A DNA stretch of 21,843 nt from contig JALAGF010006649.1 of the NCBI GenBank assembly GCA_030167865.1, forward strand, positions 62,001 through 83,843. Direction: 5' to 3'. Position 1 is the first letter of the stretch. Each line of letters begins with the position of its first letter. Both the position numbers and the translations under genes were made by a program. Source of the DNA: Craspedostauros australis (lineage: Eukaryota). Shown here in pieces: positions 149 to 20,555 of this stretch. Under the pieces are notes generated by a model. That model saw only the letters and a program-made list of their open reading frames with translations, was not told where the DNA came from and ran no database searches.

Positions 149-3025
149 ATGGTGGCGATAACCAACAACGCACAGCGCATGCAGCAGACACAAAGGAGCA
201 GCAATATCAGTGGCAACAGTAGCAGTAACAGTAGCAGTAACAGTGACAGTAGCAACGTTGATGGCTGGAGTGGTGACAGTCGACCACAAATACGAGCACG
301 AGCAGACGTGGAGAATCCCGCAAGCAACCAACCAGCAAACTCAGGAGTTTTGCGGCCGTCCAACACCGTTGATGCTCACTCAATGCCTTCACATGCATCA
401 TCGCAGTGCCCGGATTTGCGGCCTCCGCTGTCACCATCCTCGACGACCGCATTCCCACCACACACAGCAACACAAGCATCTGAGCCAGCATCAAGCACGG
501 CGTCGCAGCTGACACCGCGATCGGCCTCCGTCTCGCTCACCTCCCACAATCCCAAGATCAAGGCGAGATTCTCACCATTCGCGGATGACACCCTTCTGCC
601 GATCCCGGGAAAACTCGTGATGGCCGCGTCAACGATGGCGACATCGCCGTACATTTCCGTTTCTCCCACAACATCAGGGACAACAACAGCAGCAGCAGAC
701 GGGCCGTTCATTACCAATGCCCAAAGCGAATGCATGCTCATGTCATTGCGAGGCAAGACGCAGAAGCACCCCATCATCATCCAGCCTGTGATGGAGCCTG
801 TCTACTCCTACCTTCACGAACCACACCACGCAGCTTGCACATCACCAATCACAACACGATCGATACCGTGGGAACTTCTGCCGGCCACCATGGTTCCGAA
901 TGATGAGGGAGATCTGCAGCAACATCCCCAAAGTCAACGCAGAGGACGACGCCAGCATCATCTCGACTGCCACCACAACGCTACTGCGGATATCCACAAT
1001 CCAACAACGCCAAACAGACAGAGCAGCAAACGCTACACCAACGATGAAGTTCCATGCACCACAGCCAGCAACGGCGAGACTTCATCCGTTACCGCGCCAA
1101 CCCAAGCAGCGACCACAAACGAATGTCATGTTCCGAAGCAGAATTCCAATTCCGGCGACGCGCCCGTTCTCAAATCTTGTCTCAAAACAGCTACTCCCAC
1201 TGCTGCGGCGACGAGCCATGTTTCTCATCTTGCGCTGTCGCGGTCTCAAACCAGGACAAGTGCTGCTGCGGCTTTATCGCCACCCTCCATCAAATCCATC
1301 GCCTTCACACGCACCAAGCCACCAACGGGACGGCGCGTGACGGGATTGTGGAATGCCGAATCATCGTTCACGCGTCTTGCGGAACACACTGTTTCGCACA
1401 CGCTGTCCTTCCTTCCCCTTCTGGATCAGCTCCGCTTCGGCAGGACCTGCTTGCGTCATTCCGCTATCGTCCACGAAGTTAAGGACCATTGGCGTCACGT
1501 GGATGCCACCACGCTCGTGCAACGCCTGCATGCTCATTTCACCGTCAGCAGCGGTCACGCTTGTGCTGAGGCTACCACTACGAGTACGACTCTTGGCGAC
1601 GGCTGCGGAAGCACAAGTGCGGATACCGATGCTCACATCGCCATCAACAATGCTGCTGCGGTCGACACCATCGCGCATGCATCAACTGCGAAACCGTTCC
1701 TGAGGCGATCCAAGTCCCAAGCAACAGCAGGAATATCGGCCGCTGCAGCTCGACCCATTGCGGAACGTGTGGGAAAGCAGCTGGAGAAGCTGCTGCAGCC
1801 CCATCTGTCGCACATCAACGCCCTTGTTGTCCGTCATATTGGTGACCGGCTGTCGGCCCACTCCTGGCTGCCCAACGCGACCAACCTCCGACACCTTACG
1901 CTCACCCACTTCCGCGATCTCACGGACACGCATCTGCATGTCATGTGCATATCATCGACGCCCCACAACCAACGCATGCGTTCCAAGACGTTGCCTTTGA
2001 GGGAGCTCACCTTGTCGCACTGCCCCGCACTCACATCCATGGCATCCATCTCGCGCCATTGTCCCAGACTCGTCAAGCTCAACCTCCAGGGATGTCGCAA
2101 GATCCAGCGCATCGACAGCCTCAAACCGCTCCTGGCAACAGCTCAAGCGAACGGAGTCGCGCTGCGCGATGGAGGCGTTGCGAGGCCCAGTAATAGCGGC
2201 AACAAACTGAGCGGTCTATTCGCATCAGCGCCGTCCGACACGAACGCGACGTCAAAGCCGCTGCTGTCATCACTGTTCTCGGCTCCCAAACCACAGCCTC
2301 CTGCGCAGAACAAGTCGGGCATTTCATCGCTGTTCGCCCCGCCCAAGGCGCAGACACCGAATGCGTCTTTGGCGGCCTTGTTTGCGCAGCCATCATCATC
2401 CAATCCTGCAACGCAGCCAACCAACACGAACATGTTCTCTGGGTTGTTTGCTGCGCCGCAGACTGCAACCCCAACCACATCATTGCCCTCCCTGTTCGAT
2501 GCTCCATCTCAAGCAACGCAGCAACGGACCGAGCAAGCAGTTGGTGATGCAACTACTGCGAGCGTCAAAGCAACTACGAGTGGGGGGAAGGAAGATCCAA
2601 AAGCAACTCCCGTTGCAGAAGACGATGATGCCCCGCTTGCCACTACACCCCCACGCAACACGACTGCCAATCCGTTGGAGTCACTGTTTGCCCCTCCTGG
2701 CATGTCCCCATGCCGCAACCTGGCAGCCCGCAACACACCAACGACGAACACCTTTGGCACGAACGCAACTCCGCCCGGCCTCACCGAGCTCAACATCCTC
2801 GACACGGGCATCACGGTCTCACAATTTTGCAAGGACCTGCAGCCTCCGCACATCCTTCTGGAGCGTCTCCATATCCAGGGCCACAGCAACAAGAGCAACA
2901 CGGAACGGCTGTTGCAACTCATCCCGAACCTGTTGGTGCTCAACATTCAGCAGCAACCGCCCGTTCAGGAATGCCAGAGCCTCGCCACCAACGGGCGGTT
3001 GCTTGCGAACAGTCAATCGAGCTGA
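149..3025 (+). CDS. F-box / leucine-rich-repeat (FBXL/AMN1-like) protein with long disordered N-terminus, 958 aa
   Basis: Uninterrupted 958-codon ORF. F-box-like segment FTRLAEHTVSHTLSFLPLLDQLRFGRTCLRHSAIVHEVKDHWRHVD (~1367-1504). Cys-containing LRRs NLRHLTLTHFRDLTD, PLRELTLSHCPALTS and RLVKLNLQGCRKIQRI (~1880-2125). Further LRR-like units GLTELNILDTGIT, LLERLHIQG and NLLVLNIQ (~2777-2950). The first ~400 aa are S/T/P/Q-rich. The start codon is not independently verified. Confidence 0.8.
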   Translation: MVAITNNAQRMQQTQRSSNISGNSSSNSSSNSDSSNVDGWSGDSRPQIRARADVENPASNQPANSGVLRPSNTVDAHSMPSHASSQCPDLRPPLSPSSTTAFPPHTATQASEPASSTASQLTPRSASVSLTSHNPKIKARFSPFADDTLLPIPGKLVMAASTMATSPYISVSPTTSGTTTAAADGPFITNAQSECMLMSLRGKTQKHPIIIQPVMEPVYSYLHEPHHAACTSPITTRSIPWELLPATMVPNDEGDLQQHPQSQRRGRRQHHLDCHHNATADIHNPTTPNRQSSKRYTNDEVPCTTASNGETSSVTAPTQAATTNECHVPKQNSNSGDAPVLKSCLKTATPTAAATSHVSHLALSRSQTRTSAAAALSPPSIKSIAFTRTKPPTGRRVTGLWNAESSFTRLAEHTVSHTLSFLPLLDQLRFGRTCLRHSAIVHEVKDHWRHVDATTLVQRLHAHFTVSSGHACAEATTTSTTLGDGCGSTSADTDAHIAINNAAAVDTIAHASTAKPFLRRSKSQATAGISAAAARPIAERVGKQLEKLLQPHLSHINALVVRHIGDRLSAHSWLPNATNLRHLTLTHFRDLTDTHLHVMCISSTPHNQRMRSKTLPLRELTLSHCPALTSMASISRHCPRLVKLNLQGCRKIQRIDSLKPLLATAQANGVALRDGGVARPSNSGNKLSGLFASAPSDTNATSKPLLSSLFSAPKPQPPAQNKSGISSLFAPPKAQTPNASLAALFAQPSSSNPATQPTNTNMFSGLFAAPQTATPTTSLPSLFDAPSQATQQRTEQAVGDATTASVKATTSGGKEDPKATPVAEDDDAPLATTPPRNTTANPLESLFAPPGMSPCRNLAARNTPTTNTFGTNATPPGLTELNILDTGITVSQFCKDLQPPHILLERLHIQGHSNKSNTERLLQLIPNLLVLNIQQQPPVQECQSLATNGRLLANSQSS
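208..256 (+). repeat. Imperfect 12-bp coding tandem repeat (AACAGTAGCAGT) encoding a Ser/Asn tract
   Basis: ggcaacagtagcagtaacagtagcagtaacagtgacagtagcaac encodes GNSSSNSSSNSDSSN. Confidence 0.75.
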
Positions 3026-3956
3026 TGCTTTGTCCCAAGCGGACAATTTTGGGCGACGTCAAGGGTACTCAAACGTAATTGTAAAAGCACATAGGTACAC
3101 ATAATAGACGAGCATAGATTCAATACGACACATTCATGTGCTGTTCCATTGCGATGACCAGCGTGGGACACGTACCCGTGCTCGTGCCGTAGCTGCATCA
3201 GCATGCCGGAGGCCGTCCAGTAGCGCCGCCGTTTGCCAACTCTGCTTTAATTGATACACGACGTGCGAAAAGAGTTGTATCAAAGCTGCGCAAGGACAGA
3301 ATGGTGGGTCGCGATTTTCTCCTTTTTCCTCAGTTTGTGCGAGTGTGCGTCCTGTGCGCGTGTTTGAGTTTGGTTGGCTGGTTGGTTGATGGATCGACTC
3401 AGAGTTCCCGCACATTTTGACCCGTGCCAGCAGAGGACATTGGATCCCTGATCATGATGGGTGTTGTCTTGTTTGTCTTTGTCTCTGTTTTTGCCTGTTC
3501 GTTGGATCCGCGAAGGAATTGATTTTGTGACCAGTCGCCAGGCATGCTGTGACACGCCCAGCGCAACATGACCATGCCGCCGTGTCCAAGACCGGAAATC
3601 TCTCGCGAACACCAAACCGAAACATGTCGAGAGTCATTTGGAGAGGTTAAATGCTGCGGCCCACATCTCATAATTATTAAGCTCGGCCGTTCCACTTCAA
3701 CTCCGTTCGTATGCCGACACCCAAGACCTCCCGCAAACCCATCGGTCGCTTTGTTGCGGCTCTTTTGTTCGTGTTACGCAACACAAAGTCTCTTTGCTGT
3801 GCGCGTGTTAGCGCTATGTGTTCATCCAACTGCTCGCACAAACACAAACACGAGTATTGGAATGATCGCGCCACAAAAACACAACTGACCACACAAGACA
3901 GAGAAAGAGAGAAAGGGAGACGGACAGAGGAAGCTGAAGGCAGAGCAACAAGAACC

Positions 3957-5765: not shown

Positions 5766-8700
5766 TTAAGAGGTTTGCTGCGGTCGACGGAAGTTGTTGC
5801 GGAACTTGCGCAAGCCTCCAAAGCTGCGCGAGCCGCCGGATCCCTGAGATTCATCGCTCCGCCTGCCGGATGACGATCGCGAGCCGTTGCGCTTTGGCAC
5901 TCCGTTCTCGCGATTCTCCTGGCTGCTCGTGCTCTCCTTGGAGCCGCTGAACTTCACATCCGGAAAGTCGGCGGAGAATCCTTGCGCTTGCTGCTGCTGC
6001 TGTTGTTGCTGCTGTTGTTGCTGCTGGTGGAATTGCTGCTGCTGCTGCATTGGGACACGGTGTCCATAGGATGCCTGGACGCGCTGCGTCGCCGCTGCGG
6101 CCTGTCCTGGACGGGATGCGGCGGAATGTCTGGTGGTCTGGGTGGTGCCGGAAGCAGCGGTGTTGCTTGGGGAGATGCCATCAGCTGGGGCGCTGGCAAA
6201 GTCCATCGCGCCCTGCGAGAAGAAGGCGTGCTCCAGGACATGTCTCATGGAGTTCAGGCGCTGGTGTGGGTCGTGGTGCAGCATCCTTCGGAGGAGGTCA
6301 CGGCCGGCCTCGTTCTCAGGCGACACATGCTTCAGTGCCTTCTTGATGCTGTTCTCGTCCCACAGTCCGATCTTGGCGGTCTCCGTGTTGCTCATGGCGC
6401 GTTTGCCACGGCAGGCGTACGGTCCGAGCGGGACACCGGCGATGGCTTCGTACACAACAACACCGAAGGCCCAGATGTCGTACGTGGTGTGGGCTGGGAT
6501 TGGCACGACGGTGGCGACGAAGTTCTTCTTGCCGACAGCTGGGCGTCGGTTCTCAACCTGGATGGACTCGGGAGGGTGGTAGAATCCACGGCTTGGGTCG
6601 GTGCCACCACCAAGTGGCACACTTCCGCCAACACCGAGCAGCTTCCAGCGGCTGCCGAACTTGCCGATGTTGTGGGTTCCGAAGTCCCCGTGGATGATGC
6701 CATGCTCGTGCATGTGGAGGAGCGAGATACCGATCCTCTTGAGGGCCTTCGGTGGGAATGGCTTCCCGTTCTTCCTCATGTCAAGCATGAGATTCTCGGC
6801 GGTGGTGTCAGCGCCTTCCATCGTGATGCAGTAGCCTGGTTCGGCCATGGCCTCCGAGTATGCCGCATGCTGGACGGTGTGGTGCACGCTGATGATGGCG
6901 GGGACGTAGTGGCGCGACAGCTGGAACTCCTTGCGGATCTTGAGCTCGCGCTCGACGATCTCGGAGCGGGAGGTGAGCTTGGCGATGACCTGCTGTCCCT
7001 TCTCGCGTCGGATGTGGCGCAGCTTATCCTCGATGCTTTGCTGCGAGCGGCTGGTGAGAGTGGAGCGCATGCTCGTCTTGGAGGCACCGGAGATGTGGGA
7101 GGCGTCGTCGAACTCCTCGATGTAGTCGTCGGCTCCGTTGTCGTTCTTCTCCTCGTGCAGCACGGTGAAGGCGCCACCGCTGTTGGGTGGTGGGTCGTAT
7201 CGCAGGGCGTAGAAGATCTGCGTGTCGGACACTGGGTTGGTGTATGCCGGCCTCTGGTTGACGACCTCAAGGGTGTTGAAGAGTCGCAGCATGACGCGCA
7301 TCTCGTGCTTGCACACAGGGGTGGCAGCGGCGAGGGCAATCTTGCCATCCGGGCCTTCGATATGCGCCAAGGCCAGGACCTGCGGCTGGGTGCACGACTG
7401 CAGGATCTTGGTGACGACCTGGTGGTACAGATCCTCGGTGTTGGCGATGATGTGATTCCACGAGTAGTGATGTGGGATCAGCTGCGCGCGCACCTTCTCC
7501 GAGATGTCGATGGGCATGTCGCGCTTCAGGAGGTTGTGGACGATGAAATGGGAGTGCTCCTTGTCTGTGGCAACCTGGATTGGCAGAAGTCCCGTGGGAC
7601 GGTCCACCTGCGTGGCGAGGTCCGGCGCGTGGTTGAGAAGTCCCATGATGGTTCGATCGTCAGCGTTGTGCTTGAAGGCCAAGTGCAAAGGAGAATGGCC
7701 TTCCCCATTGAGGACCGCCGCACCCTCTGGGTATTGCATGAGGATGGCATTGGTCACGGCCGACGTGCACTGGAACTTAATGGCTGTGGCAACTGGCAGG
7801 TCTCCGTTCATGTCGGTCCTGGACACGGCTCCAGCGAAGCATGTGAGGAGGGTCTTGACGACCACAGGGTCGACGACTTCTCCGCATCGCAGCAACAGGT
7901 GCAGCGGGAGGTCGCCATTCTCGTCGGTGCGCTTGGCGGAGGCAAAATTCTCCGCCAGGAGTGCGGTGATGACACCGATGGAGGCGTGGTTGCGGCAGGC
8001 GATGTGCAGTGGCAGACCACCTCCGGAGTTGTTTGGCGGGCGGTACACCATCGTGTAGGCTCCCTCTGGCGATTTGGACAGGAGGAACTTGATGGCATCG
8101 ACCGCGTCGTAGTTGGCAGCGACGTGGATGGGCAGACGTCCCATCTTGTCGGTGTCGTTGATGCCCTCCTTGTAGGCGCTGTAGATGATCTCAAGCGCTG
8201 CGAGGTTGTCGTGCGCAGAGGCGTGGTGGATTGGCAAGGCGCCCATGTTGTCGCGGTGGATGAGTGCCTTGGGGTACAGGACCAGCACCATGTCGATGAG
8301 GAGAGTCCACGCACCGTTGTGGCGCGCGATCTTGTGAAGGGCCAGCTCCCCGCTCTTGAGGTCTGGGGCCTCCGCCAGCTCCGGGTGCTTGTCGAGGATG
8401 TTCTCGACCATGGCCCAGTTCTCTTCCTGGATCTCGCGGAAGAGCTCGGTGAGCTGCGCGCTGTCCACGTAGGCGGCCACCTGCCGGCCTGTCTGCGCTG
8501 GTGTGATCTGGCGTTCGCGGACGATGGGTGCTGCCTGTGGCTGCGGGGCCATGTGCTTTGGTGATTCGAGGTGCCTCATGACCTCCGGGCTCTGTCGTGC
8601 CATTGGCGGAGCCGACTTGCGGAATGGTGTCGTCTCGTTCTCGCGGGCTACATCGAGGTCATCGCGCGTCCTGCTGCCGCGGTACATGGCCTGCACGTTG

Positions 8701-11700
8701 GTGACGGCGCGCAGGACATCATCCTCGGATGGTCCTGGGATCGGCGAACTCTTGTAGTCGCGCCACGCACGCTGGATCATCATGGCGGCCGTGCGACGTG
8801 CGAGGAGCATCTCGAAGACGTACATGCGAGACACGAAGACGCGCCATGCGCACTGGATGGTGAGTGCGGCTCCGTGGATGCGGCGGGATGCCACGAGATC
8901 CATTGCCTGCTTCATGCGGTAGGTGCACTGGATGGTGATGGCGGCTTGGCGCATGTGTTGGAAGTAGTCACGGCAGAGCTTGCCGCGGACGATCTTCTGG
9001 ATGGTGGAGACCGCCTTGAAGAACTTGGCGGAACGCATGGACTCGATGCGGTCGAAGGCCTCACGGCGCAGGAAGACCTTGGAGCGGCCGAGCTGGAGAC
9101 CTGCGACGGCGCAACGCGAGGCGAAGTCGAGGGACATGAAGTCCTCGCGAGATTCTGGGCGTGCGACGTGGCCTGAGGACTCGCGACGGTGCTTGTCGGA
9201 TTGCCTCTTCTTGAGGCGGCGGCGGTCCTCCGGGGTCATGACAGAGGATTCCACGACGGTGTTGAATGGGAGGTTGTGGATGCCTGTGACGATCTTGTTC
9301 TTGGCGCCGTTGTCGCGGGTCTTGCGGATGGCGTAGGCTGGGGAGGCGAGCGATTCGCGGCGTCTGCGCTCCTGTTCCAGAGCGGTCATCTGAAGATCGT
9401 GGTCCATCTCCCAGAGGTTGAGGGCGATATTGCCGATGAGGCGCTTGAGCTCGGCGTCGGTGTCGTTCTCGACACGGTGGGCCAGAGAACCAGGCGCGAA
9501 GGATGGGCGACTGGATGCCTTCTCGCGTTGGTCACCAAGGATGTAGTACCGGGCGAGGAAGATGTCATGCGCGTAACGCGTGGGGTAACCGGCTCTGGAG
9601 ACACGGACAGCCTCGAGGACACCACCGCAACGCAGCTGCTCGACGATGTTCTTTGGCTCGAAGAAGTCTGGGATGAGCTCGTCGTTTGGCTTGAGGCAGC
9701 GGATGTAATGCGGCACGGTCTTCTCGATGCGGCTGCGCAGGATGCGGAGCTGGCTGGAGAACTGCGAGGAGACGCTCTTGGTGGCGACGGTACCACGTCC
9801 GGCTCTGTCCTCGGATCGCACGAAGCGGTTGATCTCCTGCAAGAACTCGAAGTCGCTGGACTTGAGGAGCTCGGAGGAAGCGGCTGGGAGCTGATCCTTG
9901 TTCTTTTCGATCCATGATTCGGTGGTGTACTCGACGAGGCCGGCATAATGCTCGATGGAGAAGACGTGGTCGACGCGTTGGGCAGAGGTGGCGCTGAAGC
10001 GCTGGTGGCGGTCGCAGCGAGCGTAGAAGTATCGGCATAGCTTGGTGTCGGTGGTGCGTGGGAGGATGCACTGCTCATCGAGGAGGGCGAGGATACCGGT
10101 GTGCTTCTGGTCGATGAGGTCTAGGACGTCCTGGTTGTCTGGGAAGGAGATGAACTTCCACATGATGCCCTCGCGTTCGTACTCCTGCTGCTCTAGCTTG
10201 AAGACGTACCTGTTGAACTGCTGCTGCAGGGCCTCGTTGGTGTAGTTGATGCAGAGCTGCTCGAATGAGTTGACCTCGAAGGTTTCGAAGCCGAATATAT
10301 CTAGCACTCCGATGGAGGCCGCACCCTGGCCCTGTCCTCTGGTGTCGTCGTAGATGCTGGCGTTGATGCGCTCGACGAGGTAGTCGAATGCCGCGCCGTA
10401 GACCGCCTTGATGAGGGCCTCGCAGGCCTTGGCCGACTCCTCGATGGTGAGGGGCTTGTGCACCGTCTCCCCGCCTGCCAGGATGGCGCGGCTGGTGAGG
10501 GCCGCTGCCAATCCGTCAAAGGTGATTCCGAGGAGGGAGGCGCAGGCCAGGGCTGCCTTGGTCTTGTCTAGCTTGCATGAGTCGAAGTCCTTGGAGGGCG
10601 TGAAGCTCATGTTTCCGGCGAAGAGGACGGCGGAGATGAGACGCATGATGTGCTGGATGGTCTCTGGCATGAAGCCGATGGTGATCATGGCCTCGAGCAT
10701 CTCGAAGTGGTTGTCCTCATCGGAGACGCCGTCGCGACGGTCGAAGGTTCCGGAGTCGCAGAGGAGGCGGAAGTCCTTGCAGGTCTTGCCGCCGATGTAG
10801 AAATCCTGGCGTTCCTTGGCCGTGGCGGCCTGGAGGAACTGGTAGAAGATGTGGTAGTTGCGCTCGCCCAGCGAAGGACGGATGAGACGGACCTTCTCCA
10901 GCAGGTAGGTCTCGATGGAGGCGCCCGAGAGCTTTCCTGACTTGTTGAAGGAGATGTCTATGTACTTTCCGAAGCGACTAGAGTTGTCGTTGCGGATGGT
11001 GCGCGCGTTACCGAATGCCTCGAGGATTGGATTGGACTGCAGCACCTGCTGCTCGATGGAGACGCCCTGCACTCCGTTGGCGGGAGAGGCGGGGCTCATG
11101 GAGGCCGGCTGACGCGGGGACTTGGAAGGCGTCGATCGCAGCGACTCGTCGGACCTGCGCTTGGAGAGCATGGCGAGGTAGTTGAGGACGATCTTGGTGG
11201 TGACCGTCTTTCCGGCGCCGGACTCCCCGGAGACCAGGATGGACTGGTTGGCCGGGATGACGGCCGGAGCGCCCCTCCCGCTGTAGAATTTCTGGTTCTC
11301 CAAGCCGCGGATCATCTGGCGGTAGGAGTCGTCGGCGGTGGAGTAGACGTGCGGCTGCAGGCGCTTGGAGGAGGGCTTGGCGGGGGCGCGGCCCTTCTTG
11401 GGCGTCTGGAACTTGGTGGGCGAGGCGCCCTGCGGCTCGTTGGGCTGGCCGATGCCCGACTCTCCCTGGATGCGGTAGTGCTCCATGATCTCCGGCGAGT
11501 AGAGGTCCATGCGCTTGAAGGGGTTGATGGCGATGAGGATGGGGCCGGTGGAGGTGTAGATGATGTCGGAGTCGTACCTGAGGCGCAGGGAGTGCAGAAT
11601 GGCGGGCTCGTGCAGGTGCGTGAGCTCGATGAGGTCGTCCACGCCGCCGACGACGGAGCTGGATATCTGCGTGGAGGGCGAGGCCACGACGCCCGCTTCC

Positions 11701-12044
11701 GCGTCCTCCCCGCTGGCGCGGAAGGAGGAGGGGAGGTTGCGGAGCTTGATGTCGTCATGGTCTGCCGTCTTGAGCTGTTCCGGATCCACGGAGACCTCCA
11801 CGCAGAAGTCCTCCTCGTCCTGGAAGTACTGCGATCCGCTGCGCTTGGGCGGTCCTGGCCGCGCTCCTGAGTGAGAGGGCCGGTGGATCGCGGCGCTGGT
11901 GGCCTCGATGCTCACGTCCTTCACCAGGGTCAGCACGATGGTGCCGTCGCCGGCTTCGGACTCCTTCTTCTCCACGATCACCGCGGGCACCCATCCCCAG
12001 TGGGACTCTTTGCGTCTCAGCCACACGTTCTGGTTCAGCTCCAT
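5766..12044 (-). CDS. Unconventional myosin heavy chain, 2092 aa: SH3-like N-terminus, motor, ~5 IQ, ankyrin repeats, kinase-like domain, polyQ tail
   Basis: Motor motifs: DDLIELTHLHEPAILHSL, IYTSTGPILIAINPFK, P-loop GESGAGKT (11228-11205), switch I LEAFGNARTIRNDNSSRFGK, ERNYHIFYQ, switch II DIFGFE, NSFEQLCINYTNE, HYIRCLKPN, SH1 QLRCGGVLEAVR, LGRSKVFLR. IQ motifs IQKIVRG, IQCTYRM, IQCAWRV, IQRAWRD, VQAMYRG (~9015-8660). Ankyrin-like G-x-LPLH repeats (~8450-7515). Kinase-like region (~6995-6219). Strong GC3 bias, no intron needed. Myosin class not assigned. Confidence 0.97.
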   Translation of the reverse strand: MELNQNVWLRRKESHWGWVPAVIVEKKESEAGDGTIVLTLVKDVSIEATSAAIHRPSHSGARPGPPKRSGSQYFQDEEDFCVEVSVDPEQLKTADHDDIKLRNLPSSFRASGEDAEAGVVASPSTQISSSVVGGVDDLIELTHLHEPAILHSLRLRYDSDIIYTSTGPILIAINPFKRMDLYSPEIMEHYRIQGESGIGQPNEPQGASPTKFQTPKKGRAPAKPSSKRLQPHVYSTADDSYRQMIRGLENQKFYSGRGAPAVIPANQSILVSGESGAGKTVTTKIVLNYLAMLSKRRSDESLRSTPSKSPRQPASMSPASPANGVQGVSIEQQVLQSNPILEAFGNARTIRNDNSSRFGKYIDISFNKSGKLSGASIETYLLEKVRLIRPSLGERNYHIFYQFLQAATAKERQDFYIGGKTCKDFRLLCDSGTFDRRDGVSDEDNHFEMLEAMITIGFMPETIQHIMRLISAVLFAGNMSFTPSKDFDSCKLDKTKAALACASLLGITFDGLAAALTSRAILAGGETVHKPLTIEESAKACEALIKAVYGAAFDYLVERINASIYDDTRGQGQGAASIGVLDIFGFETFEVNSFEQLCINYTNEALQQQFNRYVFKLEQQEYEREGIMWKFISFPDNQDVLDLIDQKHTGILALLDEQCILPRTTDTKLCRYFYARCDRHQRFSATSAQRVDHVFSIEHYAGLVEYTTESWIEKNKDQLPAASSELLKSSDFEFLQEINRFVRSEDRAGRGTVATKSVSSQFSSQLRILRSRIEKTVPHYIRCLKPNDELIPDFFEPKNIVEQLRCGGVLEAVRVSRAGYPTRYAHDIFLARYYILGDQREKASSRPSFAPGSLAHRVENDTDAELKRLIGNIALNLWEMDHDLQMTALEQERRRRESLASPAYAIRKTRDNGAKNKIVTGIHNLPFNTVVESSVMTPEDRRRLKKRQSDKHRRESSGHVARPESREDFMSLDFASRCAVAGLQLGRSKVFLRREAFDRIESMRSAKFFKAVSTIQKIVRGKLCRDYFQHMRQAAITIQCTYRMKQAMDLVASRRIHGAALTIQCAWRVFVSRMYVFEMLLARRTAAMMIQRAWRDYKSSPIPGPSEDDVLRAVTNVQAMYRGSRTRDDLDVARENETTPFRKSAPPMARQSPEVMRHLESPKHMAPQPQAAPIVRERQITPAQTGRQVAAYVDSAQLTELFREIQEENWAMVENILDKHPELAEAPDLKSGELALHKIARHNGAWTLLIDMVLVLYPKALIHRDNMGALPIHHASAHDNLAALEIIYSAYKEGINDTDKMGRLPIHVAANYDAVDAIKFLLSKSPEGAYTMVYRPPNNSGGGLPLHIACRNHASIGVITALLAENFASAKRTDENGDLPLHLLLRCGEVVDPVVVKTLLTCFAGAVSRTDMNGDLPVATAIKFQCTSAVTNAILMQYPEGAAVLNGEGHSPLHLAFKHNADDRTIMGLLNHAPDLATQVDRPTGLLPIQVATDKEHSHFIVHNLLKRDMPIDISEKVRAQLIPHHYSWNHIIANTEDLYHQVVTKILQSCTQPQVLALAHIEGPDGKIALAAATPVCKHEMRVMLRLFNTLEVVNQRPAYTNPVSDTQIFYALRYDPPPNSGGAFTVLHEEKNDNGADDYIEEFDDASHISGASKTSMRSTLTSRSQQSIEDKLRHIRREKGQQVIAKLTSRSEIVERELKIRKEFQLSRHYVPAIISVHHTVQHAAYSEAMAEPGYCITMEGADTTAENLMLDMRKNGKPFPPKALKRIGISLLHMHEHGIIHGDFGTHNIGKFGSRWKLLGVGGSVPLGGGTDPSRGFYHPPESIQVENRRPAVGKKNFVATVVPIPAHTTYDIWAFGVVVYEAIAGVPLGPYACRGKRAMSNTETAKIGLWDENSIKKALKHVSPENEAGRDLLRRMLHHDPHQRLNSMRHVLEHAFFSQGAMDFASAPADGISPSNTAASGTTQTTRHSAASRPGQAAAATQRVQASYGHRVPMQQQQQFHQQQQQQQQQQQQQAQGFSADFPDVKFSGSKESTSSQENRENGVPKRNGSRSSSGRRSDESQGSGGSRSFGGLRKFRNNFRRPQQTS
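5986..6047 (-). repeat. CAG/CAA trinucleotide repeat encoding polyglutamine in the myosin tail
   Basis: (ctg/ttg)n on the + strand; protein reads MQQQQQFHQQQQQQQQQQQQQAQ. Confidence 0.9.
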
Positions 12045-19145: not shown

Positions 19146-20555
19146 CTACACGCTCCTCAGCTCCGGGTAATCGGCAACAACGTCCCTGAGTGTGAGCGTC
19201 TCGAATCGATCCTCGGGCGTCCACAGAATCTCGGCACTCTGCAGGCTATCGCCGACCTTGACATCTGCCGCGATGCGTCGCAAGGCGTCTTCGACGTCCG
19301 CCCTGGTGTTTCCCGTGACCTTGGTCGAGTCACCGTCGATGGCGAGGATGATGGTGATGACCGCCATGGTGGCCTTGTCGGAGGAGGTGGGGAGGTTCGA
19401 GCTGGACTGTCGCCTTCCTGTGTAGTCCACGCCGCCGTACTTGGAGACCTGCTCTTGCTCAAACTTGCTTCTCTCCGTGACGGACTTGGTTTGGAAGTCA
19501 CGGAGGGCCTTGTTGTTGTTGCGGTAGTGCTGGTAGGAGGTGGAGGCCGAGACGATGGACGACTTGCGTCGCAGCAGCTCGATGGCGACCTGGCTGGTCA
19601 AGGACTGGACGCCCATTCGGCTGTCGGTTTGAGCGGTGTCGCTGAGGCGCTTCAGGGCACTGAGGATGGAATTGGGATCATCCCTGTTGGGAACCTCCAT
19701 GCCGATGGAAACCTGGACCAAGGAAGTGCCGGGTCCCAACGGCGTCACGACGTCGTCGTTATCGCCCCAAGACGAGCCCCAGGTGGACGTCGCCACGTTG
19801 CTGGCCGAGTTGGTGAAGCTCCTTGCGGCGCTCGCGATGACGTACAGCACGCCCCCGAAGAAGAGAAAATCGAAAAAGCTCGGTCCACGGCTGACCGCCA
19901 TCACGCCGGCGCCACCATAGTACACAGGGGCGGGGGCATATCCGATTCCAGGAGTTGTGATGATTGGGCTGTAGGTCGGTGCTATGATCGTCCTGGGTCG
20001 CGTGTATCCGTATCCGCCTCTGGAGTAACCGCCGACGCGAGGTGAGGAGGATCGCATTGGACGAGACATGGAGGTTGATGATCGGGGCGATGAGAAGGAT
20101 CCACCCATGCGACCGCCTGACATGGCAGCGTCGGCTTGAAGAGGAGATGCAAGCAGCGCAAACATGAGCGCCATCGTTGCTCCCATCATCACGGTCATCT
20201 GCCTGTTTTCGTTGTTCTCCGACAAGGCTTGGATCATGGAGACGAGGGCAGGCTTTGGATTGTGTAGTGGCTTGTCCATCATCTCTGGTTCTGCATCCGC
20301 AGTCGCCATCAGGGCGGATGGTGCTGCTGAACTCTCAAGCTTTGGAAGCTGGCGTTGATGTCGTTGATGGCTGTGATCAGCGTGGTGGTTCCCACTCAGC
20401 CACGGACTCTGGACACCAAGCCTCATGGCTGGTCTCGAAGCCGTGGATGGCTTTGCGGCTCTCCATGCCGGTGTGAAAGCTGTTGCGTGTCGTGATGACA
20501 CAGCGAGGCAAGCGATGAACGCTGCGGCTGGTCCTGGTCTGGCAGAGAGTCTCAT
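19146..20555 (-). CDS. FLAP1: FLAP1-like / DUF1517 plastid membrane protein (fluctuating-light acclimation protein 1 homologue), 469 aa
   Basis: Hallmark A|AMSGGRMGGSFSS after an AxA-ending hydrophobic segment. G/Y/P-rich loop, TM FFDFLFFGGVLYVIA, then SLVQVSIG, ALKRLSDTAQTDS, ELLRR, FQTKSVTERSKFEQE, VITIILA, DVEDALRRIA and C-terminal AEILWTPEDRFETLTLRDVVADYPELRSV. The leader has a signal peptide plus ATA|FTP. Confidence 0.9.
   Translation of the reverse strand: MRLSARPGPAAAFIACLAVSSRHATAFTPAWRAAKPSTASRPAMRLGVQSPWLSGNHHADHSHQRHQRQLPKLESSAAPSALMATADAEPEMMDKPLHNPKPALVSMIQALSENNENRQMTVMMGATMALMFALLASPLQADAAMSGGRMGGSFSSPRSSTSMSRPMRSSSPRVGGYSRGGYGYTRPRTIIAPTYSPIITTPGIGYAPAPVYYGGAGVMAVSRGPSFFDFLFFGGVLYVIASAARSFTNSASNVATSTWGSSWGDNDDVVTPLGPGTSLVQVSIGMEVPNRDDPNSILSALKRLSDTAQTDSRMGVQSLTSQVAIELLRRKSSIVSASTSYQHYRNNNKALRDFQTKSVTERSKFEQEQVSKYGGVDYTGRRQSSSNLPTSSDKATMAVITIILAIDGDSTKVTGNTRADVEDALRRIAADVKVGDSLQSAEILWTPEDRFETLTLRDVVADYPELRSV

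Follow-up and report, generated by a model that had tools for sequence, protein, structure and literature searches.

The window, a stretch of 21,843 nucleotides from Craspedostauros australis (contig JALAGF010006649.1), contains an ORF whose protein consists of a low-complexity N-terminal region, an F-box-like bundle and two LRR groups that are separated by a disordered insert. Seven copies of a short motif are found in the insert. The features are as follows, with the type of evidence in brackets.

149–3025, + strand: ORF encoding 958 aa, stop codon included (translation)
149–1315, + strand: N-terminal ~390 aa of low complexity and weak conservation (family alignments)
1331–1351, + strand: R-R-V-x-G-L-W segment, aa 395–401, conserved in the family and immediately ahead of the F-box (alignments A1 and A2)
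1364–1495, + strand: F-box-like helical bundle, aa 406–449, divergent from the Pfam profile (AlphaFold2, alignments)
1820–2134, + strand: N-terminal LRR group of four predicted β-strands and a helix (AlphaFold2, VIA-align)
2147–2764, + strand: disordered insert, aa 667–872 (~206 aa), at the LRR4/LRR5 boundary (pLDDT)
2207–2233, + strand: motif 1, LSGLFASAP, starting at aa 687 (translation)
2264–2290, + strand: motif 2, LSSLFSAPK, starting at aa 706 (translation)
2321–2347, + strand: motif 3, ISSLFAPPK, a strict F-x-P-P copy starting at aa 725 (translation, family alignment)
2369–2395, + strand: motif 4, LAALFAQPS, starting at aa 741 (translation)
2435–2461, + strand: motif 5, FSGLFAAPQ, starting at aa 763 (translation)
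2483–2509, + strand: motif 6, LPSLFDAPS, starting at aa 779 (translation)
2675–2701, + strand: motif 7, LESLFAPPG, starting at aa 843, an almost invariant family signature (translation, family alignment)
2705–2716, + strand: S-P-C-R, aa 853–856, a conserved S-P-x-R immediately 3′ of motif 7 (family alignment)
2783–2965, + strand: C-terminal LRR group with predicted strands at aa 880–883, 906–910 and 930–934 (pLDDT 83–96)

The true N-terminus of the protein may lie more 5′, because the reading frame is open upstream as far as the start of the window. Relatives that were aligned to the window by tblastn begin to align only at position 1307, and a tblastn search with the longer relative P0003 found no extra C-terminal exon past position 3025. 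In the segment that precedes the F-box, R395, R396, G399 and W401 are invariant in alignment A1, and the tryptophan is almost invariant in alignment A2.

AlphaFold2 predicts the F-box bundle and an LRR solenoid of 4+3 repeats at pLDDT values of 83–98, including values of 90–98 for the F-box helices (aa 406–449). The N-terminal LRR group comprises strands at aa 558–561, 582–586, 619–623 and 643–645 and a helix at aa 656–662. The best structural matches of the model are FBXL2, FBXL17 and FBXL5, and these matches span both LRR halves. FBXL2 (6o60_C) is matched with a Foldseek E value of 1.5e-4 and a VIA-align Z score of 16.2 over 227 residues (model residues 16–555 onto chain residues 9–276). FBXL17 and FBXL5 give VIA-align Z scores of 15.4 and 14.7, respectively, within a range of 13–16 for FBXL and other LRR solenoids. 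The InlB LRR is aligned over 188 residues (model residues 32–549 on chain residues 54–242; rmsd 3.9–4.0), which indicates that the two LRR groups belong to one solenoid. An earlier note on this DNA had proposed an AlphaFold check of whether the LRRs close across the insert, and they do so in the model, as both groups align onto continuous solenoids.

Profile matches of the protein itself are sparse. The Pfam LRR_4 match at aa 617–659 (E 2.2e-4) is sub-threshold, with 21.8 bits against a cut-off of 27. No Pfam F-box family matches the 958-aa protein at E ≤ 1 or the aa 400–460 segment alone at E ≤ 0.01, and P0002, the closest relative, likewise lacks any Pfam F-box match. The F-box assignment draws on homology and on the model: aa 390–464 align to residues 210–287 of P0003 (E 6.6e-10), and this alignment covers the Pfam F-box-like domain of P0003 (residues 236–275, 40.6 bits). 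Pfam F-box, F-box-like and LRR_4 domains are present in relatives, with F-box or F-box-like above the gathering cut-off in 38 of 51 scanned proteins and at E ≤ 0.01 in 47 of the 51. The identification of the window protein as an FBXL-like F-box/LRR protein, with a disordered insert splitting its predicted solenoid, is supported by these homologies and by the model. The F-box/LRR receptor that had been suggested for this ORF is upheld in its FBXL-like fold and in its homology to the F-boxes of relatives, although its own F-box gets no Pfam match. Because neither the 958-aa protein nor P0002 has a Pfam F-box match, Skp1 binding is uncertain in their subclade.

FBXL2, FBXL17, FBXL5, Skp2 and KDM2B also have an N-terminal F-box bundle followed by an LRR solenoid. 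The window protein differs from these FBXL proteins in the ~206-aa motif-bearing disordered loop within its solenoid and in having only 4+3 LRRs. Literature searches found no description of an FBXL solenoid that is interrupted by a disordered motif-array loop and, among the matches listed for diatom F-box/LRR/SCF proteins, nothing on the present family.

The insert is modeled with pLDDT values of about 40–51, mostly below 50, except for a local increase to 63 around motif 7, in which a one-turn helix is predicted at aa 844–847. The insert is rich in S, T, P and A (A27, P24, S21 and T21 among 164 residues) and is flanked on both sides by confidently predicted LRRs. An assignment of the insert as degenerate LRRs was rejected, given the absence of strands in the model, the three hydrophobic residues per unit and the many prolines.

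The seven copies are non-randomly organized. Motifs 1–6 start 19, 19, 16, 22 and 16 aa apart, and motif 7 starts another 64 aa on. The spacers separating copies 1–6 are 11–17 aa long and each contain 0–1 acidic and 0–2 basic residues. Seven of the eight Phe residues of aa 670–860 are located in LF dipeptides. When aa 670–860 were shuffled 20,000 times with composition preserved, the [LIFMV]xxLF pattern occurred 0.105 times on average and LF followed by P within 1–3 residues occurred 0.236 times; a count of seven was reached in 0/20,000 shuffles for either pattern. At the DNA level, Tandem Repeats Finder detected no tandem array over the motifs in positions 1900–3100 and reported only an unrelated 11-nt unit at 1931–1956. 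A DNA repeat search retrieved only 17-nt motif cores of 71–76% identity, and the L and F codons vary among the seven copies. The earlier description of the insert is borne out: seven [LIF]xxLF motifs lie at exactly the places that had been given, motifs 1–6 start 16–22 aa apart, the array is not a DNA tandem repeat and an S/T/P/A-rich segment of low pLDDT separates the LRR groups.

Of 1.84 billion representatives searched with a profile, 734 matched at E ≤ 1e-3, including 49 at E ≤ 1e-30; the proteins behind the conservation counts are mostly from metagenome contigs, and several are fragmentary. The strict motif is present in 1–9 copies in 72 of the 87 best matches (183 motifs in 57,569 residues) and in 5 of 65 weaker generic LRR matches (6 motifs in 40,424 residues). 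The motif has the consensus L-x-S-L-F-A-P-P-[P/G] in the family, and relatives contain 1–10 copies. The family does not depend on high valency, because most relatives hold just a few copies (1–3 in 56 of the 87 best matches). A logo of 185 motifs contains L0 in 146, S+2 in 115, L+3 in 168, A+5 in 89, P+6 in 127 and P+7 in 151, with flanks that are merely S/T/P/A-biased. The F and P positions of the logo are partly circular, since the search pattern fixed F and required a nearby P, but L0, S+2, A+5 and the exact proline positions were left free.

In the 49-sequence alignment, the residues of the last motif are conserved about as well as the LRR core (L in 49/49, L in 48/49, F in 47/49, P850 in 47/49 and G in 38/49), and the spacer columns are mainly gaps or unconserved. 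The S-P-x-R that follows motif 7 retains S in 40/49, P in 44/49 and R in 35/46 sequences, and LFxxPGx[ST]P is shared by 34 of the 87 best matches but by 0 of the 65 controls. The motif 3 position is also aligned in 49/49 family members, with F in 47/49. Compared with P0002, the window protein is identical at 20 of 30 aligned residues of the motif cores versus 50 of 126 aligned residues elsewhere in the insert. The check that the earlier note proposed, whether relatives keep the motif as their spacers diverge, comes out positive, with copy number varying as well.

These data bear on a reading in which the array has no function and arose by expansion of low-complexity sequence, or else stems from a retained intron or a faulty gene model. 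No RNA run was found on record for the organism. A single 490-nt contig of one run, whose kind is guessed to be RNA, is identical to and collinear with positions 2623–3110; of the array it includes the last motif alone, together with the stop codon; moreover, further long ORFs in other frames overlap the region. Against this reading, the motif is kept at the peptide level in the 72 motif-bearing relatives despite differing codons and spacers, the insert stays in frame and aligns collinearly with relatives, and the array is retained in the transcriptome-derived proteins P0177 and P0169 (MMETSP records). A lack of function is largely refuted, and we assign it a negligible probability.

Dozens of related proteins also keep the motif, and the array is therefore probably a set of docking sites built into the protein for a putative partner. 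That the window protein belongs to a pennate-diatom FBXL-like family, whose disordered-loop motif array docks one external partner with avidity, is reasonably likely in our estimate. In the mechanism that we infer, which includes binding, avidity, phospho-control and SCF assembly, the lineage-specific FBXL-like proteins presumably act as substrate receptors in SCF ubiquitin ligases. The last copy, fused to S-P-x-R, would be the ancestral, almost invariant anchor, and the upstream copies would be older duplicates that are maintained at the peptide level and whose number sets the valency. Each copy would provide a weak docking site in the form of a one-turn L-x-x-L-F helix halted by prolines. 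The array as a whole would avidly bind one external partner and keep it beside the LRR surface and the SCF core, and the role of the partner may be that of substrate, regulator or localiser. Beside the anchor copy, S-P-x-R likely serves as a switch that is phosphorylated by proline-directed kinases of the CDK/MAPK type.

F-box/LRR proteins are usually held to select targets by their folded LRR surface. The diatom family has kept 1–10 motif copies in a loop of that surface while spacers and codons have fully diverged, and L-x-S-L-F-A-P-P would be a new short linear motif with an almost invariant copy beside S-P-x-R. To our knowledge, short linear motifs have scarcely been mapped in diatoms, an ecologically dominant algal group. 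The motif array offers a handle on an otherwise uncharacterised presumed ubiquitin ligase.

The last copy may be almost invariant for structural reasons instead of for docking. In a cis-regulatory arrangement, the motifs, chiefly the last copy, would fold onto the LRR surface of the same protein as a pseudo-substrate or lid and be freed by phosphorylation of S-P-x-R. The location of the last copy ~25 aa ahead of LRR5, its LRR core-like conservation and its pLDDT of 63 compared to ~45 in the flanks, together with the short helix, are consistent with such a lid. However, a pLDDT of 63 falls short of a confident docked pose, and a single cis site leaves the varying number of upstream copies unexplained. 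A complex prediction with the split LRR halves and a 41-aa piece around motif 7, run without an alignment, scored 0.02 against a mark of 0.34, which speaks neither for nor against docking in cis. We consider cis-regulation unlikely.

Cohesive self-association was also weighed against the docking array. FG domains consist of Phe-centred repeats with uncharged polar spacers. The LF dipeptides in the uncharged S/T/P/A/N/Q linker might similarly act as stickers that drive self-association, condensate formation or partitioning into an FG-like phase at the nuclear pore. As in FG nucleoporins, Phe-centred motifs occur every ~16–22 aa with uncharged polar spacers, and the spacers of copies 1–6 resemble FG domains in composition and spacing; G follows F in 17 of 183 family motifs, and P0002 contains two SLFG. 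The window protein differs from FG nucleoporins in that FG is absent from all seven motifs and their spacers and is rare in the family; the sole FG of aa 670–872 is at residue 869, past the last motif. The likeness to SLFG nucleoporin repeats that had been drawn for the array hence does not extend to membership. The motif (L0, S+2, A+5 and PP) is also far more specific than stickers require, and the presence of only 1–3 copies in most relatives argues against them. A sticker function is very unlikely.

Likenesses to the FAM21 LFa repeats and the Dcp2 motifs had also been drawn. FAM21 similarly carries many short LF motifs in a long disordered region, and the number and quality of its repeats set avidity, according to the available excerpt, in which LFa is defined as L-F-[D/E]3-10-L-F and binds retromer VPS35 (PMC3374753). 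The array is not a member of this class, as no acidic stretch joins its LF pairs; unlike in the LFa excerpt, the pairs are 16–22 aa apart with spacers of 0–1 acidic residues, and the motifs are followed by prolines. The Dcp2/DCP1 HLMs are described, in the excerpt available, as several leucine-rich motifs that lie in a disordered tail, become a short helix on binding to the LSm domains of Edc3/LSm14 and act through avidity (PMC3877753). The one-turn helix predicted at motif 7 resembles an HLM, but the protein context is different, HLMs as given in that excerpt have neither the proline cap nor the invariant F, and no LSm partner is implied. An L-x-x-L-F spacing identical to that of the array is found, in the excerpted sources, in the TEAD-binding helix of YAP and the Vpr-binding motif of HIV-1 Gag p6. 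Both of these LxxLF motifs occur singly, in animal or viral systems that are unrelated. We know of nothing that points to the existence of their partners in diatoms.

The F-x-P-P core of the motif is also that of the P-motif, which is published as a RAD51/DMC1-binding element. In the available excerpts of two reports, FxPP is found in BRCA2 PhePP (FVPP), RAD54B (FIPP), FIGNL1 and yeast Rad54, the RAD51AP1 P-motif has W, and the P-motif of BRCA2 TR2 is located around F3298 with S3291 nearby; P-motifs bind a conserved RAD51/DMC1 site with oligomers preferred, and their essential residues are F at position 1 and P at position 4 (10.1101/2023.10.05.561053; 10.64898/2026.03.22.713441). If the copies are FxPP P-motifs, the array would dock oligomeric RAD51/DMC1, with one copy per filament protomer. 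The SCF receptor would then read recombinase filaments or the proteins bound to them, or ubiquitylate either, and S-P-x-R would give cell-cycle control, like the CDK site near the BRCA2 TR2 FxPP. SCF action on RAD51 has a precedent in FBH1, which limits RAD51 on chromatin as part of an SCF ligase; as a point against the P-motif reading, the FBH1 paper contains neither an FxPP nor an FxxA term (PMC12946210).

The array of the window protein contains both essential residues, with F in 7/7 copies and P at position 4 in 6/7; P is at position 3 in 2/7. In the family, P occupies position 3 in 127/185 and position 4 in 151/185 motifs, and the higher frequency at position 4 fits that position as the essential proline. 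P-motif proteins likewise have an F-x-P-P core with a better conserved position-4 proline in a disordered region, and BRCA2 TR2 also has a P-motif adjoining an S-P site. However, the resemblance could well be due to chance, because the core comprises three fixed residues in a proline-rich region. The flanks are mostly uncharged, with 0–2 basic residues per spacer at unfixed positions and a conserved R/K only at the last copy, 9–10 residues past F, whereas BRCA2 PhePP binding needs flanking basic pairs according to the excerpt, in which P2408 was not probed (10.1101/2023.10.05.561053). The window family further differs from P-motif proteins in its conserved L0, S+2 and L+3, which are not in the published P-motif, in its up to 10 tandem copies and in its F-box context. 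A diatom SCF receptor with a putative phospho-switchable multivalent P-motif array, recognising the RAD51/DMC1 filament and coupling ubiquitylation in mitotic repair or meiosis, is improbable, as is recombinase docking itself. If true, it would be the first F-box protein to read a recombinase filament via a motif array and the first instance of tandemly multiplied P-motifs; F-x-P-P as a recombinase-binding element would link SCF ubiquitylation to RAD51/DMC1 filaments in an undescribed way.

The array was also searched for outside the family. With the 10-copy region of P0029 as a query, six proteins were retrieved at E ≤ 0.1, all of them family members except P0168; this search has little power, as low-complexity sequence is penalised by HMMER. 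P0168 has a WDR3-like WD40 N-terminus and a C-terminal half that is, by eye, close to the family member P0165, and it is probably a chimeric gene call. A degenerate DNA pattern of two FAPP motifs 30–60 nt apart matched at least 118 loci in metagenome contigs; for 128 pattern matches, none of the ORFs of ≥30 aa fit the family HMM, and the matches were mostly out of frame or bacterial low complexity; the pattern tells little about how widely the array occurs. No usable match was obtained in the ESM Atlas with aa 680–860, and nothing relevant was found in the literature on motif strings such as SLFAPP or LxxLFxPP. The named relatives are all pennate diatoms. The source name of P0009, whose F-box is above the cut-off, is that of a Cylindrotheca scaffold that also bears an orthologue of the myosin gene neighbouring the ORF in the window.

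The LRR solenoid of P0001, the FBXL-like F-box/LRR protein under study, is interrupted by a disordered loop containing seven short motifs. Its reading frame is open as far as the 5' end of the window. An AlphaFold2 model of residues 390–958, built with a 49-sequence family alignment (mean pLDDT 68, pTM 0.61), delineates the following elements.

Features of P0001
Window 149–3025, plus strand: ORF of 958 residues, the single long ORF of this plus-strand region
Residues 406–449: helical bundle (F-box-like), pLDDT above 90
Residues 558–645: four LRR strands
Residues 667–872: insert, pLDDT about 40–51
Residues 880–934: three LRR strands, pLDDT 83–96

The top PDB match of the model by Foldseek is FBXL2 within the SKP1 complex (E 1.5e-4). 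In VIA-align, model residues 16–555 are superposed onto FBXL2 chain residues 9–276 (227 residues, Z 16.2), and FBXL17 and FBXL5 score Z 15.4 and 14.7, respectively. Ordinary LRR solenoids, InlB among them, superpose over 188 residues drawn from both sides of the insert, and these fall on one continuous stretch of the solenoid chain. Because this alignment spans the insert, the two LRR groups form one closed solenoid in the model with the insert as its loop, in agreement with the earlier note, which described a solenoid split by an insert. After the last motif (window 2783–3025), P0001 has about 100 residues with three LRRs versus about 280 residues in its longer relative P0003, and no further exon was found downstream of the ORF.

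The proposed F-box identity is borne out by the fold and the family but not by a domain match in P0001 itself. The Pfam scan of P0001 returned no F-box match and only a below-threshold LRR_4 match. A word-based protein search with P0001 yielded two relatives, and a three-protein profile searched against 1.84 billion representative proteins gave 734 matches with E<=1e-3, of which 49 have E<=1e-30. An F-box or F-box-like domain exceeds the Pfam gathering cut-off in 38 of the 51 relatives scanned and reaches E<=0.01 in 47, and residues 390–464 of P0001 align with the P0003 segment that carries the Pfam F-box-like domain. The F-box of P0001 and of its closest relative, P0002, has diverged past Pfam detection, so that Skp1 binding by P0001 is putative. 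Immediately upstream of the F-box, an R-R-V-x-G-L-W segment (residues 395–401, window 1331–1351) is invariant or nearly so family-wide and could be an N-terminal F-box extension or a basic targeting signal.

The seven peptides listed in the earlier note are present exactly in the P0001 translation, starting at residues 687, 706, 725, 741, 763, 779 and 843 (window 2207–2701). Motifs 1–6 are spaced 16–22 residues from start to start, and motif 7 lies 64 residues beyond motif 6. Seven of the eight phenylalanines in residues 670–860 belong to an LF dipeptide. Composition-preserving shuffles of this segment contain a mean of 0.105 [LIFMV]xxLF matches, and none of 20,000 contains seven. Tandem Repeats Finder detected no tandem array over the motif region, a DNA repeat search recovered only 17-nt motif cores with 71–76% identity, and the Leu and Phe codons vary between copies, as had been claimed. 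Thus, the motif pattern is real, far beyond chance, and maintained at the peptide rather than the DNA level.

The motif is a signature of the family. A strict pattern, [LIFMV]xx[LM]F with a P no more than two residues further on, occurs in 72 of the 87 best matches, which derive mostly from metagenome contigs and include fragments, and is missing from 60 of 65 weaker matches (generic LRR proteins). Copy numbers are pattern-dependent: by the strict pattern they range from 1 to 9 (one copy in 26 proteins, two in 15, three in 15 and at least four in 16), and a looser pattern gives a maximum of 10, in family member P0029. The logo of 185 motifs, in which F and a nearby P are fixed by construction, reads L(146)-S/A/Q-S(115)-L(168)-F-A(89)-P(127)-P(151)-P/G(101), with only an S/T/P/A bias in the flanks. 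Across the 49 aligned family sequences, conservation of the last copy (L 49/49, L 48/49, F 47/49, P 47/49, G 38/49) equals that of the LRR core, and the residues after it are also conserved (S 40/49, P 44/49, R 35/46). A second copy (residues 725–733 in P0001) is aligned in all 49 sequences, and the spacer columns are mostly gaps or unconserved. The extended signature LFxxPGx[ST]P is found in 34 of the 87 best matches versus none of the 65 weaker ones. P0001 and P0002 have the same residue at 20 of 30 aligned motif-core positions versus 50 of 126 aligned positions in the rest of the insert, which is the pattern of kept motifs and diverging spacers for which an orthologue check had been proposed.

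All relatives with a source name come from raphid pennate diatoms (Cylindrotheca fusiformis, Amphora coffeaeformis, Nitzschia inconspicua, Entomoneis/Amphiprora, Pseudo-nitzschia heimii and P. multiseries); the N. inconspicua protein, KAG7345754.1, is annotated 'F-box domain containing protein'. Two named relatives from MMETSP transcriptomes keep the array, and the insert therefore belongs to the mRNA in relatives. Given these transcriptome-derived proteins and the peptide-level conservation, an origin of the array in artefact, intron or drift is hardly credible. In public runs, part of the locus was found in one run only, as a single contig collinear over 2623–3110. The neighbouring gene is as follows.

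Window 5766–12044, minus strand: myosin-IQ-ankyrin-kinase gene

This uninterrupted 2092-residue ORF combines a myosin head and an IQ motif with ankyrin repeats and a protein kinase domain at the C terminus. Precomputed Pfam annotation shows the same architecture, at ~2000 residues, in many diatoms, both pennate and centric. The best named matches to the myosin protein (72–78% identity) are from Nitzschia, Bacillariaceae, Seminavis and Pseudo-nitzschia, which assigns the window to a pennate diatom. By source names, the C. fusiformis relative P0009, which has six insert motif copies and a Pfam-positive F-box, and the Cylindrotheca myosin orthologue P0286 directly follow one another as gene models of a single scaffold; the F-box/myosin pair thus appears syntenic between the window and Cylindrotheca, with P0009 as the positional orthologue.

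The analogies drawn earlier with known motif arrays largely fail. FG repeats require an FG dipeptide, which is missing from the seven motifs and spacers of P0001 (the sole FG in residues 670–872 is at 869, past the last motif), and FG-repeat membership is ruled out; a role as FG-like cohesive stickers is quite improbable. The FAM21 LFa motif is defined as L-F-[D/E]3-10-L-F (PMC3374753). The P0001 spacers between copies 1 and 6 are 11–17 residues long with 0–1 acidic residues, which rules out LFa membership, although the avidity logic is common to both arrays. Dcp2 HLMs, described as leucine-rich helical motifs binding LSm domains (PMC3877753), resemble the P0001 motifs in general terms only.

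The FxPP P-motif matches the family motif core more closely than LFa, FG or HLM. According to two reports, it occurs in BRCA2 (PhePP, TR2), RAD54B, FIGNL1, RAD51AP1 and yeast Rad54, binds a conserved RAD51/DMC1 site, favours oligomers and stabilises filaments, and both its first-position phenylalanine and its fourth-position proline are essential (10.1101/2023.10.05.561053; 10.64898/2026.03.22.713441). In BRCA2 TR2, a phosphorylated serine adjoins the P-motif, and phosphorylation abolishes the stabilising effect (10.1101/2023.10.05.561053). Recombinase binding by the array would fit F-x-P-P as the most conserved, C-terminal half of the family motif and the stronger retention of position-4 than position-3 proline (151 versus 127 of 185 in the family; 6 versus 2 of 7 in P0001). 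However, the core is short and chance matches are likely in a proline-rich context, the basic flanks important in BRCA2 PhePP are absent from the P0001 array, and the conserved upstream L, S and L lie outside the published P-motif; we consider this reading unlikely.

In its anatomy this is a short-linear-motif array: 3–5 residues are conserved, the spacers are polar and disordered, the number of copies varies, and one copy is an ancestral anchor. Motif enrichment, conservation, disorder and the F-box/LRR frame are shown by the analysis; as to function, we infer that the array most likely docks one external partner, which would be kept beside the LRR surface and, via the F-box, beside the SCF core. 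Docking of the anchor copy in cis on the LRR of P0001 itself has a small chance of being correct; in the AlphaFold2 model, the pLDDT of motif 7 is raised to 63 and a one-turn helix is formed. For an array that docks an external partner, the S-P-x-R tetrapeptide after the anchor copy suggests a phospho-switch. It matches a proline-directed kinase consensus, that of CDKs being [S/T]-P-x-[K/R]. P0001 is a presumed FBXL-like receptor whose disordered loop carries a conserved motif, and the loop is the new part: no description of the motif, family or architecture was found in the literature covered, most of it outside subscription journals.

Two relatives have unusual architectures. P0040 (1048 residues) carries the F-box and LF array followed by a Proteasome subunit match (PF00227, residues 846–965, 27.7 bits, cut-off 22.4). 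Eight of the ten members of its cluster are equally 1048 residues long and lie on different contigs; P0040 may be a genuine fusion, or two genes may have been merged repeatedly in gene calling. P0168 (567 residues) joins a WDR3-like WD40 N-terminus to the family motif array and C-terminus, close by eye to those of family member P0165, and is probably a chimeric gene prediction. Elsewhere in the window, a 469-residue ORF at 19149–20555 on the minus strand contains a DUF1517 domain (E 4.3e-38).
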